Source: Naegleria gruberi
Lineage: Eukaryota
Assembly: GCA_000004985.1 (NCBI GenBank)
Contig: GG739217.1
DNA length: 3,633 nt
Strand: one strand, 5' to 3'
The stretch's first letter is position 1, and each line of letters opens with the position of its first letter. Made by a program: the position numbers and the translations under genes. The notes beneath the pieces were generated by a model that saw only the letters and a list, made by a program, of their open reading frames with translations, was not told the DNA's origin and made no database searches. Shown piece by piece: positions 1 through 3,633 of the stretch.

Positions 1-400
1 ATGATATTAATAACATATCAGCTGGAAATGAACAATCTTCCTCAACCTTAACAATATCACCTACTTTTAAATCACATGTATATACTTGTTCAATCATATT
101 AATACCATTATTATTACTATTATTATTATTATTATTCATGGAATTATTTCCTCCTCTTCTTAATACATTTGTGGTCATCATGTTAATTTTACGATCATTT
201 AAATATCTGAGAAAATCTTCACCTCCCTCTCTTATCATATTCACTCCGATAATGAAAATTACAGGGAGAACTGCAGTGATGGGTGTGATGGGTGAAACAC
301 CTGGTATTAAGGCAAATATCATTGTAATGATAAAGTAAATATTACCAATTTTACATAATTGATATATTAAATTAAGAATTATAAAATTCCACCATGTATA
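1..400 (-). CDS. P4-type phospholipid-transporting ATPase (flippase), internal exon, partial; it continues beyond position 1. It encodes 'YTWWNFIILNLIYQLCKIGNIYFIITMIFALIPGVSPITPITAVLPVIFIIGVNMIREGGEDFLRYLNDRKINMMTTNVLRRGGNNSMNNNNNNSNNNGINMIEQVYTCDLKVGDIVKVEEDCSFPADMLLIS'.
   Basis: I reverse-complemented and translated by hand. The frame is open for 133 codons. Motifs of the Drs2/ATP8/ATP9 family are in the expected order and spacing: 'KY…F' before TM1, 'N-x-YF…IPGVSP' (TM1 and luminal loop), 'M-I-R/K-E-x-x-E-D…R…D…N' (TM2 exit), then 'VLR', 'VGDIV.V' and 'PADMLLIS'. The last matches the canonical 'PADLLLLSSSE', which is cut by the window edge. The other two minus frames and the plus frames are interrupted. 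Confidence 0.85.
107..136. repeat. (ATT)10 trinucleotide microsatellite with one ACT interruption. On the minus strand it is (AAT)n encoding the Asn homopolymer 'NNNNNNSNNN' inside the P4-ATPase CDS.
   Basis: Ten consecutive ATT units (one ACT) read on the plus strand and translated on the minus strand. The run sits between 'VLRRGG' and 'INMIEQVY…VGDIVKV', a position where P4-ATPases normally have only a short beta-hairpin. Confidence 0.85.
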
Positions 401-460
401 CTATTAGTTTACAACAATATTAAGATATAAATTATTTCAATGAGATTAATAATAACATAC
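401..460 (-). other. Spliceosomal intron of 60 nt, phase 0. Minus-strand sequence is GTATGTTATTATTAATCTCATTGAAATAATTTATATCTTAATATTGTTGTAAACTAATAG.
   Basis: On the minus strand the exon ends '…ACT ACA AAG' (…TTK) and is followed directly by GTATGT. At the other end, TAATAG is followed by 'TAT ACA TGG' (YTW…). Removing the 60 nt joins '…NYISTTK' to 'YTWWNF…', recreating the conserved P4-ATPase 'I-S-T-T-K-Y-x-x-x-x-F' motif, whereas read-through gives 'KVCYY*'. The intron is about 83% A+T. Confidence 0.7.
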
Positions 461-948
461 CTTTGTAGTAGAAATGTAATTGGATGAAAAGCGTTTTCTT
501 CTCAAACCTAAAAACCACTTTTTAGTAGCCTTTGAATTTAATTCCCAATTATTAATATGTACAATATGTGATTCACCTTCATCTTCCTCTTCTATGGTAT
601 TATTATTATCATGTTGTTCCGATAATTTAAATGAATTATTACAATTTGATCCTGGTAATGATGAGGTTGCTGATGTTGGCATATTACTATTAGGTGATTG
701 TAATATTATTATATTATTATTCTTATCATCTTGATGAGGTTGACCAGCTGATGATGGTGATTTAAGAATATTACTTGATTGATGAGGAGATTGTTGTTGA
801 TAATAATAAGGATGATCATCTAAATGTAAGGGATCCAACAAACCAACTGAACTTCTATTTGAAAAGGAATCTAATAATTCCCTATCTGATGATGAACCAC
901 CACTTGGAGTTGATACTCTATCTTTATGATAGTGTAAATCTATTGTTG
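461..948 (-). CDS. P4-type ATPase, upstream exon, partial; it continues 5' into the N-run. It encodes a Ser/Asn/Gln-rich low-complexity N-terminal tail, then '…SHIVHINNWELNSKATKKWFLGLRRKRFSSNYISTTK'.
   Basis: A 163-codon open frame abuts the N-run, in phase with the downstream exon across the 60-nt intron. 'HIVHINN' corresponds to the P4-ATPase 'R-x-I-x-x-N' start motif (Drs2 'PRIIHIND'). '…NYISTTK' corresponds to '…NHISTTKYN'. Codon usage (AGA, GGT, TTA, CAA, AAT) matches the downstream exon. The only in-frame Met visible is in '…SPNSNMPTSA…', and the true start may lie inside the N-run. Confidence 0.75.
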
Positions 949-2603
949 NNNNNNNNNNNNNNNNNNNNNNNNNNNNNNNNNNNNNNNNNNNNNNNNNNNN
1001 NNNNNNNNNNNNNNNNNNNNNNNNNNNNNNNNNNNNNNNNNNNNNNNNNNNNNNNNNNNNNNNNNNNNNNNNNNNNNNNNNNNNNNNNNNNNNNNNNNNN
1101 NNNNNNNNNNNNNNNNNNNNNNNNNNNNNNNNNNNNNNNNNNNNNNNNNNNNNNNNNNNNNNNNNNNNNNNNNNNNNNNNNNNNNNNNNNNNNNNNNNNN
1201 NNNNNNNNNNNNNNNNNNNNNNNNNNNNNNNNNNNNNNNNNNNNNNNNNNNNNNNNNNNNNNNNNNNNNNNNNNNNNNNNNNNNNNNNNNNNNNNNNNNN
1301 NNNNNNNNNNNNNNNNNNNNNNNNNNNNNNNNNNNNNNNNNNNNNNNNNNNNNNNNNNNNNNNNNNNNNNNNNNNNNNNNNNNNNNNNNNNNNNNNNNNN
1401 NNNNNNNNNNNNNNNNNNNNNNNNNNNNNNNNNNNNNNNNNNNNNNNNNNNNNNNNNNNNNNNNNNNNNNNNNNNNNNNNNNNNNNNNNNNNNNNNNNNN
1501 NNNNNNNNNNNNNNNNNNNNNNNNNNNNNNNNNNNNNNNNNNNNNNNNNNNNNNNNNNNNNNNNNNNNNNNNNNNNNNNNNNNNNNNNNNNNNNNNNNNN
1601 NNNNNNNNNNNNNNNNNNNNNNNNNNNNNNNNNNNNNNNNNNNNNNNNNNNNNNNNNNNNNNNNNNNNNNNNNNNNNNNNNNNNNNNNNNNNNNNNNNNN
1701 NNNNNNNNNNNNNNNNNNNNNNNNNNNNNNNNNNNNNNNNNNNNNNNNNNNNNNNNNNNNNNNNNNNNNNNNNNNNNNNNNNNNNNNNNNNNNNNNNNNN
1801 NNNNNNNNNNNNNNNNNNNNNNNNNNNNNNNNNNNNNNNNNNNNNNNNNNNNNNNNNNNNNNNNNNNNNNNNNNNNNNNNNNNNNNNNNNNNNNNNNNNN
1901 NNNNNNNNNNNNNNNNNNNNNNNNNNNNNNNNNNNNNNNNNNNNNNNNNNNNNNNNNNNNNNNNNNNNNNNNNNNNNNNNNNNNNNNNNNNNNNNNNNNN
2001 NNNNNNNNNNNNNNNNNNNNNNNNNNNNNNNNNNNNNNNNNNNNNNNNNNNNNNNNNNNNNNNNNNNNNNNNNNNNNNNNNNNNNNNNNNNNNNNNNNNN
2101 NNNNNNNNNNNNNNNNNNNNNNNNNNNNNNNNNNNNNNNNNNNNNNNNNNNNNNNNNNNNNNNNNNNNNNNNNNNNNNNNNNNNNNNNNNNNNNNNNNNN
2201 NNNNNNNNNNNNNNNNNNNNNNNNNNNNNNNNNNNNNNNNNNNNNNNNNNNNNNNNNNNNNNNNNNNNNNNNNNNNNNNNNNNNNNNNNNNNNNNNNNNN
2301 NNNNNNNNNNNNNNNNNNNNNNNNNNNNNNNNNNNNNNNNNNNNNNNNNNNNNNNNNNNNNNNNNNNNNNNNNNNNNNNNNNNNNNNNNNNNNNNNNNNN
2401 NNNNNNNNNNNNNNNNNNNNNNNNNNNNNNNNNNNNNNNNNNNNNNNNNNNNNNNNNNNNNNNNNNNNNNNNNNNNNNNNNNNNNNNNNNNNNNNNNNNN
2501 NNNNNNNNNNNNNNNNNNNNNNNNNNNNNNNNNNNNNNNNNNNNNNNNNNNNNNNNNNNNNNNNNNNNNNNNNNNNNNNNNNNNNNNNNNNNNNNNNNNN
2601 NNN
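949..2603. other. Unresolved or masked sequence: 1,655 consecutive N.
   Basis: Read directly from the sequence. Open frames on both flanks run into it, so it hides the 5' end of the P4-ATPase gene and the 3' continuation of the cyclase-like exon. Confidence 1.
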
Positions 2604-2705
2604 GATAAGATTGCATGACACATTTTCCTTTCAATCACACCAGCAATGACTGGTCCAGTATTCACACCAATTCTAATGTTCACAATGAGTTGATCATTCG
2701 AATTC
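2604..2705 (-). CDS. Coding fragment with a class-III nucleotidyl (adenylyl/guanylyl) cyclase catalytic-domain signature: '(RNSNDQ)[28 protein letters not shown]…', continuing 3' into the N-run.
   Basis: The hand translation matches the ORF track once GTG-as-M is corrected to V. '[14 protein letters not shown]' matches the cyclase-homology-domain consensus 'R-[IV]-G-[IV]-[HN]-x-G-P-V-[IV]-A-G-V-[IV]-G' in 11 of 14 positions against the mammalian AC C2 '[25 protein letters not shown]'. 'ERKMCHAIL' aligns loosely with '[10 protein letters not shown]'. The frame is open from the TGA at 2708..2710 into the gap. AG at 2706..2707 is a possible acceptor, but the upstream exon boundary is undetermined. 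Confidence 0.4.
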
Positions 2706-2795
2706 CTTCATATAAATCAATAGTTTATCATTCAAAGGATGAGACATTTCATAGAGTTTGTGATACCATAAATATATCTGTTGGATCCAAAACTG

Positions 2796-3479
2796 TTACA
2801 TTTTGGAAAATAAATTTTGTTGAGCATTGTAAAAGTTTCTTGTATTTTCTTGAGTTGAAGAAGTTAAGTAATCGGTCATTACTTCTTCAATACCAAAACA
2901 ATATTGAACTTTTGCATTGAATGTAATTGTAATGTTGAGCTGTTGCAAGTATAATAGAACAGATTCATATCTTAATAAGGAGTAAATTTGTTCAAATTCA
3001 CTAGGTTTAAGCTTTTCATTCCAATATCTGGTATCTCCGTATTGGGCTAAACCTGACAAACCAAAAAAGGTAAGAATTTCACCCAAATAAAAAGCTGAAA
3101 ATTGTAAATGACCAATCACATTTGAAAATAATCCAACATTTGTGAAAGTGAATAGGGCTGACTTGGCATTCTTATAAGTTTCATAATATAACATTCCACT
3201 ACATAATGGAATGATTAACGCAAGAATTCCAATAGCAATTACAAGTGTAACATTTGATTGAAGTGCCTTTGATACAATATTTGAATCTAGGGAAGCTTCC
3301 AATGTTGTTTTCTTATTCAATTGTTGATAAATTTTACCAATACAATCCTTGGAAATTTCCTTTTCAAATAATTTGACAATTCTTCTAAAATATAACAAAT
3401 CATATTGAATGTAGGCAATCAATGTACATATAAGCACCATTACACCGATTACAAGGTAAAAGAACCAACTCCGACTCAA
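2796..3479 (-). CDS. ORF of 228 codons for a polytopic membrane-protein segment. Hydrophobic spans are '[23 protein letters not shown]', '[23 protein letters not shown]' and '[37 protein letters not shown]'. The family is not recognisable with confidence and the 5' end is unresolved.
   Basis: Only one of the three minus frames is open across about 700 nt; the other two carry dense stops, as I checked by hand for 2800..3110. Codon usage matches the P4-ATPase exons. The ORF-track 'M' at 3479 is TTG, not ATG. The first ATG is codon 13 ('…GVMVLICT…'), inside the first hydrophobic span. The ORF ends at TAA 2796..2798. It is probably part of the same gene as the cyclase-motif exon, because that exon needs upstream exons on this strand. 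Confidence 0.5.
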   Translation of the reverse strand: [227 protein letters not shown]

Positions 3480-3633
3480 ACATCAAATTAAAAGTTGATG
3501 CCTTACTTCTGTCAACATAGGTATTACAAAAATCCTCATAAATCTGAGTGATTGGAAATTTGTTAAGCCACAAATAATGAAATTTGAAATAGGATACATA
3601 AATTGAGAACTCATCATTTTTTCAATAATTTCC

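Follow-up and report, generated by a model that had tools for sequence, protein, structure and literature searches.

How does a class III cyclase signature come to stand at the edge of an assembly gap, with no room upstream for the rest of its domain? The window, by which we mean the whole stretch of 3,633 bp that we analysed, is in fact an entire scaffold of Naegleria gruberi, tiny and unplaced, in an assembly of 1,977 scaffolds (PMC9928731). Two contigs of about 1 kb flank a gap of 1,655 N (948 + 1,655 N + 1,030; Table 1), dimensions that suggest a single small-insert mate pair. Frame 2 of the minus strand reads for 34 residues, from 2707 to 2606, and then enters the N-run. Within this reading lies a 16-residue motif (2680-2633) that adjoins the gap. 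A preliminary description treated the reading as a short exon and offered three explanations for it: a truncated or degenerate cyclase-like module, an unusual splice pattern or a pseudogene fragment.

A cyclase signature at the gap edge

The signature that had been reported for 2604-2705 is indeed present in the letters. Taken alone, the motif peptide scores 24.9 bits (E = 1.8e-5) against Pfam PF00211, for which the gathering cut-off is 21.9 bits; it aligns with columns 97-121 of 183 and carries the beta4 pattern RIGxHxGxxxxGVxG. When all three minus frames of 2604-3633 were scanned with the profile, a match appeared in the motif frame only, at about these same columns, and the search neither failed nor pointed to a non-cyclase family. 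The motif is also 61% identical to residues 808-825 of the homologue encoded on contig L002 (described below), and its DNA agrees with L002 11397-11469 at 45 of 73 nt, the top position within the L002 exon. Judged by these comparisons, the motif is a genuine class III cyclase fragment.

Could it instead be a chance look-alike inside a non-cyclase protein? The match is only ~25 residues long, but its score exceeds the gathering cut-off, and the membrane region that precedes it in collinear order belongs to proteins that, wherever they are full-length, finish with a cyclase domain. Moreover, the flanking RNSN and KGKxxMQSY match those same relatives. We reject a chance origin, to which we assign practically no probability.

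Intact relatives and their layout

A protein search with the membrane open reading frame (ORF) upstream of the motif gave XP_002668205.1 (P0001), a "predicted protein, partial" of N. gruberi that is 99% identical to it. A protein 58% identical (P0002) led to contig L001; P0003 and the 68.5-kb contig L002, from a Naegleria-like organism, came from a further search. In the intact order, a multi-pass membrane region and one further transmembrane helix come first, then a PAS domain and a coiled coil, and a full cyclase domain closes the protein. The L002 gene is called as four collinear pieces, with introns of 55 nt and 109 nt, and its spliced product scores 57 bits for PAS and 175.5 bits for Guanylate_cyc (columns 3-182). 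The same domain order is found in P0130, P0004 (N. fowleri FDP41_003059) and P0005 (N. gruberi); together with L002/L003, L001/P0002 and XP_002668668.1 (P0006, N. gruberi), these are the Naegleria-type membrane PAS-cyclases. The class III AC/GC domains (PF00211) include those of cyanobacterial PAS-adenylate cyclases, which are ~50% identical to the catalytic domain of the homologue. Two partial cyclases of N. gruberi from the same PAS-cyclase family, P0008 and P0014, sit on leftover scaffolds of 1,230 and 1,323 bp, which suggests a systematic difficulty in assembling or cloning members of this family.

Table 1. Features of the window and of the relatives used for comparison (positions refer to the window unless another contig is named)
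Feature	Position	Strand	Basis or remark
Sequenced stretches	1-948 and 2604-3633		both ~28-30% G+C
Assembly gap, 1,655 N	949..2603
P4-ATPase exon 2 (YTWWNF...VGDIVKVEEDCSFPADMLLIS)	1..400	minus	PF16209, PF00122; runs off scaffold end
P4-ATPase intron, 60 nt, GTATGT...TAG	401..460	minus	read from sequence
P4-ATPase exon 1 (window part), low-complexity N-terminal extension to ..NYISTTK	461..948	minus
P0001 model, 451-aa "partial protein"	1-948 and 2800-3362
Multi-pass membrane region remnant	2961..3633	minus	residues 94-338 of spliced L002 homologue
Frameshift 1, 1 nt fewer than in L001 (..AAT TTC AT-TAT TTG TGG..)	3577..3582	minus	frame translations against P0002/L001
Frameshift 2, 1 extra nt (GAG-T-TGG)	3466..3470	minus	DNA alignment, 1-nt gap in L001
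Deletion 1 junction, 41 codons, in frame	2955..2963	minus	alignments with relatives
Pre-helix conserved segment (..ITFNAKVQYCFGIEEVMTDYL..LDPTDIFM..SHPLNDKLLIYMKEF)	2700..2966	minus	precedes last transmembrane helix in relatives
Frameshift 3, 1 nt missing in A-run	2801..2804	minus	DNA alignment
Frameshift 4, 2 nt missing (ATGG--TATCAC against ATGGAACATTAC)	2764..2767	minus	DNA alignment
Deletion 2 junction, AGGAATTC	2700..2707	minus	alignments to L001, L002 and family
Cyclase-domain island, 25 residues, beta4 region, PF00211 columns about 97-120	2633..2707	minus	profile and L002 alignments
Deletion 3 junction, in purine-rich GAAAGGAAAA	2629..2634	minus	protein and DNA comparison
Last cyclase strand fragment, LKGKCVMQSY (relatives: VKGKGKMQSYLL)	2605..2634	minus	other frame than motif; enters gap
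Match to L002 homologue residues 94-448	3632-2700	minus	tblastn; membrane region and pre-helix segment
Match to L002 homologue residues 808-825	2686-2633	minus	tblastn; motif
Match to L002 homologue residues 875-887	2643-2605	minus	tblastn; LKGKCVMQSY against VKGKGKMQSY, other frame
L002 piece 1			multi-pass TPR_TmcB region
L002 piece 2			membrane region
L002 piece 3			one transmembrane helix, PAS domain and coiled coil; ends ..LGDISCFFSDM
L002 piece 4			cyclase piece, begins VGFT..; carries a 48-residue stretch and VEVKGKGKMQSYLL
Introns compared	L001 about 2189-2234; L002 9870-9924		L001 boundaries by eye

A collinear remnant with broken frames

A tblastn comparison of the spliced L002 protein with the window gave a collinear map of three blocks (Table 1), the first of which, the membrane region and pre-helix segment, matches L002 with E = 1.6e-68. 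The membrane region remnant is 57% identical to L001 over 227 aa (E = 1e-81, tblastn) and 38% identical to L002. For the pre-helix segment, identity to L001 is 50% over 92 aa (E = 7e-25, tblastn; the DNA alignment agrees). The 5' part of the gene is beyond the scaffold end. With the Naegleria PAS-cyclases the window thus shares a collinear membrane region (57% amino acid and about 75-79% nucleotide identity to L001), the pre-helix motif ..LDPTEIFM..PLxDKLxIYMxEF, the beta4 motif NIR[IV]G[IV]NTG..AGVIG and the last-strand VKGKGxxxxYLL. Unlike them, it has four frameshifts and is without a 41-residue conserved segment; nothing is left of the last transmembrane helix, PAS domain and coiled coil, and of the cyclase domain, columns 1-~96 and ~122-175 are gone.

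The frameshifts emerged from DNA-level comparison as four small indels of 1-2 nt each, and they make two excursions from the frame of the first block. In one, from ~3580 (-1 nt) to ~3468 (+1 nt), homology continues in another frame for 37 codons (HYLWLNKFPITQIYEDFCNTYVDRSKASTFNLMFESE) until frameshift 2 restores the original one; the listed ORF opens with a TGA (3482-3480) that is itself a by-product of the frameshifts. The other runs from 2804-2801 (-1 nt) to ~2766 (-2 nt), where frameshift 4 returns homology to the previous frame.

This second excursion changes the meaning of the space upstream of the motif. It had been pointed out that only some 110 nt lie between the exon and the stop of the membrane ORF, and that stops crowd the other two minus frames there. 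These observations hold: the membrane ORF (3479..2796) ends in a TAA at 2798-2796, ~110 nt upstream of the GTG at 2683, and all three minus frames of the interval contain stops. But the TAA is not the true end of the membrane ORF, nor is the interval a non-coding gap. In fact, the TAA is created by frameshift 3: the homologous frame reads N-V-T there and homology continues past it, so that, via two small frameshifts, the interval proves to be conserved coding sequence (NVTVLDPTDIFM..YHKLYEMSHPLNDKLLIYMKEF), 50% identical to L001.

Two other ways of filling the interval were considered and dropped. It contains a look-alike of the first cyclase strand (NVTVLDPTDI / YGITNSM, resembling VTVLFxDIxGFT), for which columns 1-20 stayed unaligned; with it included, the Pfam score was 27.1 bits, little above the 24.9 bits of the motif alone, and NVTVLDPTDI corresponds to the conserved pre-helix ..LDPTEIFMEH.. 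in L001 and L002. A ciliate code, with TAA and TAG read as Gln, would be meant to open the upstream frames; TGA stops persist, and the organism is Naegleria.

The same interval decides the case of an unusual splice. An intron GTAACA...GAAG (2798-2706) would join ..NLFSKM of the membrane ORF to the motif and so yield a functional truncated or degenerate cyclase-like module. The splice would be in frame, and the P0001 model appears to use a donor near this position, as inferred from where it departs from the ORF. In L001 and L002, however, the bases of this putative intron are conserved coding sequence, and even the spliced product would be without cyclase columns 1-96 and about 122-175, hence without any catalytic residue. 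The frame, moreover, breaks again at 2634-2629, with two more frameshifts upstream. We have rejected this intron as highly improbable. Of the explanations originally offered, then, the truncated or degenerate module and the pseudogene fragment stand, and the short exon and the unusual splice, whose interval is conserved coding sequence, fall.

The membrane region and the pre-helix segment meet at an in-frame deletion. The lost segment (..AANWNELIYGDVTKPxDDPVIGLYPSLD..) is conserved in L001, L002, P0127 and P0130, and the intron that relatives carry in it is also absent from the window. The position of this intron differs between the two contigs: after ..AAN in L001 and after ..DDPVIG in L002, 14 codons apart.

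Two large deletions flank the motif

What became of the N-terminal half of the cyclase domain? At 2707-2700 two homologies overlap on the bases AGGAATTC, because the readings R-N-S and K-E-F share them. Read from upstream, the junction gives ..K-E-F, and homology to L001 and L002 ends right after GAATT; in the cyclase frame, AGG AAT TCG AAT gives RNSN, which fits the R-[DN]-[FY]-N that precedes beta4 in the family. The upstream homology ends at 2700, and the matched motif block opens just 13 nt further on, at 2686. Missing at this point are 343-361 codons (n = 4 relatives) and an intron, with the helix, the PAS domain, the coiled coil and cyclase columns 1 to about 90-96. The claim that the N-terminal half of the domain is not encoded upstream is thus borne out: ~360 codons of every intact relative are deleted here. 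The transmembrane helix and PAS domain that stand between membrane region and cyclase in L002, P0130, P0005 and P0004 are absent from the window.

The junction coincides with an EcoRI site, GAATTC (2700-2705). This is probably a coincidence, the site being explained by conserved Glu-Phe codons (GAATTT in L001 and L002); an origin by restriction or ligation is the less likely alternative.

On its other side the motif ends just as abruptly. About 158 nt are missing (52-53 codons between AGVIG and KGKG in four relatives), the frame changes, and AGVI is joined to the distal KGKxxMQSY strand. The strand fragment LKGKCVMQSY reaches a BLOSUM score of 33, the best of 1,106 10-mers in six frames and a value attained by 17 of 20,000 shuffles. 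The last 31 bases match L002 at 11628 in 22 of 31 positions, the best in the exon (next best 17/31), and 1 of 3,000 shuffles does as well; against the sequence that normally follows AGVI they match in 12 of 31. We therefore discarded a reading of ERKMCHAIL as degraded GRKKFAYDLW. The codon after AGVI is GAA (E), at 2632-2630, as reported, but this apparent departure from the consensus G is no substitution: the codon sits on the deletion junction itself.

In the window the two junctions read ..ATGAAGGAATTCGAATGATCAA.. and ..GGTGTGATTGAAAGGAAAATGTGTC.., and at both the retained sequences overlap by a few bases (AGGAATTC; GAAAGGAAAA). As judged from relatives, both would fit microhomology-mediated deletion.

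Catalytic capacity

A whole-domain PF00211 match (~180 residues) was found in none of the minus frames, where the profile aligns only at columns 97-121 of 183. No window frame has either of the segments with the metal-binding aspartates (F-x-D-x-x-G-F-T and K-x-x-G-D-x-Y); their counterparts in relatives, FSDMVGFT and KIKTIGDAY, fall inside the ~360-codon deletion. The transition-state Asn/Arg segment (..WGDTVNxASRME..) is missing too, and lies in the ~158-nt deletion directly after AGVI. Because both Asp segments and the Asn/Arg segment are deleted, no cyclase activity can be encoded. Nor does a continuous ORF run through the domain, in which the frame changes at 2707-2700 and 2634-2629 and upstream of which stops occur in all frames. 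Compared with the PF00211 domain, the window keeps the beta4 "arm" motif RIGxxTGPVxAGVxG, in all ~25 of 183 columns plus ~9 last-strand residues; it has lost the two metal-binding Asp positions, those for substrate recognition and the Asn/Arg pair. Going by the recorded sequence, the locus cannot encode a cyclase or any continuous protein.

The P4-ATPase across the gap

On the left contig lies the beginning of a P4-ATPase gene (PF16209, 75.3 bits), and its exon query matched hundreds of P4-ATPase N-termini. An intron splits the sequence between NxIxTTK and YT; its length is a multiple of three, it contains in-frame TAA, TGA, TAA and TAG, and its removal restores both the NxIxTTKYTxxxF motif and the PF16209 match. 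The translation of the left contig (124 aa) is 100% identical to residues 29-152 of XP_002676491.1 (P0123, NAEGRDRAFT_68473), a protein of 1,103 aa encoded on a 413,107-bp scaffold. The start of this protein falls 28 residues before the contig edge, inside the N-run, so the ATPase is a separate gene. The gap should therefore hold the C-terminal tail of the cyclase, an intergenic spacer and the first ~28 P4-ATPase codons.

How, then, can one annotated protein span both contigs? P0001 joins ..NAQQNLFSK to IVSTPSGG.. across the N-run, treating the gap and the cyclase fragments as an intron. On the sequence of its two halves, XP_002668205.1 is a chimeric model.

Taken at face value, this model would imply a single fusion gene with the cyclase N-terminal to the P4-ATPase, the reverse of the order in alveolates. 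Alveolate fusion proteins of P4-ATPase and guanylyl cyclase include Plasmodium GCalpha/beta, Toxoplasma GC and the ciliate GCs. As in these proteins, a P4-ATPase and a membrane cyclase are adjacent in the window on the same strand; no stop interrupts the ATPase frame at the contig edge (948), and P0001 joins the two. Against fusion, P0001 merely skips the cyclase fragments along with the N-run, the same ATPase starts on its own on the main scaffold, P0124 and other relatives are P4-ATPases in their own right, with matches that begin at the N-terminus, and the cyclase reading frame is broken many times. Nor is the neighbourhood conserved: what comes after the L002 homologue is a gene for acyl-CoA oxidase and no ATPase. 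In the window, no single ORF carries both P4-ATPase and cyclase domains, P0001 being the only "fusion". Compared with the alveolate proteins, the order is reversed, with the cyclase first, and there are two genes with separate starts; a cyclase of the window's family has one catalytic domain and a PAS sensor, whereas the alveolate fusions have two domains and 2 x 6 helices. We find a fusion gene scarcely credible.

A pseudogene or an artefact?

The alignments demonstrate homology, collinearity, lesions and lost residues. Homology to intact relatives combined with disabling lesions, here four frameshifts and three internal deletions, is what one looks for in a pseudogene. To explain these results, we propose that the motif is probably a surviving island in a genuine and recent pseudogene, or degenerate allele, of an N. 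gruberi membrane PAS-cyclase gene. In relatives, the intact gene specifies a multi-pass membrane region with a final transmembrane helix, then a PAS sensor and a coiled coil, and last a class III cyclase domain that is complete. The copy in the scaffold carries four 1-2-nt frameshifts and deletions of 41 codons, ~360 codons and ~158 nt; the last two flank the motif and account for the loss of the helix and PAS domain as well as of both Asp segments and the Asn/Arg segment. These lesions would be genomic rather than clone-born, and the pseudogene would lie at most ~1.7 kb upstream of NAEGRDRAFT_68473, on the same strand. Dead copies are in fact to be expected, because the family is large, with at least 81 cyclases in the genus (PMC9928731).

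The damage is peculiar in kind. It consists of indels only: in ~310 homologous codons there is no nonsense substitution, and a relative-rate test with L002 as outgroup counted 28 amino acid changes unique to the window against 23 unique to L001 (p = 0.58), a test of limited power in which only roughly >5% extra neutral divergence would have shown. By these two measures relaxed constraint on the retained sequence was not detected. Indel-only damage is unusual for an old pseudogene, and because it comes without excess change or nonsense codons the lesions must be recent or artefactual.

Were the lesions an artefact of cloning, sequencing or assembly, N. gruberi would have an intact PAS-cyclase gene here, and the deletions, with the small indels perhaps as well, would have arisen on the way to the database. 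An AT-rich plasmid insert unstable in E. coli, or a chimeric or poor read, could be the source, and would also explain why the mini-scaffold stayed unmerged. The scaffold is sized as one small-insert mate pair, and its left half duplicates a locus already in the 413-kb scaffold; redundant mini-scaffolds of this kind are often left unmerged from an aberrant clone. The absence of excess substitutions and nonsense codons fits an artefact as well, and so do junctions at short overlaps, which are typical of slippage deletions, and the presence of other cyclase paralogues (P0008, P0014) on leftover scaffolds of ~1.2-1.3 kb.

Several points speak against it. Seven lesions within ~1 kb are many for one clone, and as independent events they are far more than the single accident that cloning usually produces. 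The left contig is identical to the main-assembly protein at 124 of 124 residues, without error up to the gap-side edge, so base calling on the scaffold is accurate, and poor base calling at read tails is weakened as a cause of the frameshifts. An intact gene in the main assembly, finally, should be annotated. Among the annotated proteins of N. gruberi, none besides P0001 has the membrane region and none is an intact parent copy (P0005, P0006, P0008 and P0014 have neither the window's motif nor its membrane region), and the main assembly therefore appears to be without an intact annotated copy. The deletion junction had no match in a metagenome collection, in which a control sequence from the same contig had none either, a result that favours neither side. 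We regard an artefact as unlikely, if well worth keeping in mind. Pseudogene or artefact, the "short exon" with its truncated cyclase module is no functional feature.

Significance of the locus

Nothing about the locus is out of the ordinary: it is a remnant from a known gene family, and the piece of assembly that carries it is poor. It has little biological weight, being a single dead or garbled member of a family that numbers at least 81 cyclases in the genus, and isolated domain motifs beside assembly gaps on leftover scaffolds should not be taken for unusual domain architectures! One could still envision a very recent loss of a sensor cyclase directly upstream of a P4-ATPase flippase on the same strand, with functional or transcriptional coupling of the two wherever the cyclase is intact (in another haplotype or strain). 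We hold this to be a long shot; if true, such coupling would be a heterolobosean parallel, reversed and unfused, of the alveolate fusions between P4-ATPase and guanylyl cyclase.

The locus matters more for curation. XP_002668205.1 is a chimera and should not be mistaken for a fusion of the cyclase family with a flippase. The flippase model XP_002676491.1, for its part, appears to be without its N-terminal membrane segment, which the small scaffold supplies. It jumps from ..EEEDEG to SILKSTQFVYG.. and so skips the PhoLip_ATPase_N segment together with the first membrane helices and the beginning of the actuator domain; the stretch missing from it is encoded in window 1-590 (ESHIVHINNWELNSK..YTWWNF..VGDIVKVEEDCSFPADMLLIS). 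In the 413-kb scaffold there is probably a gap that the small scaffold fills, or a mis-model that it corrects. Within the same ATPase, an AAT/ATT repeat (100-140, minus strand) gives rise to NNNNNSNNNG, an Asn-rich insert that lies after the second membrane helix region and before VGDIVKV.
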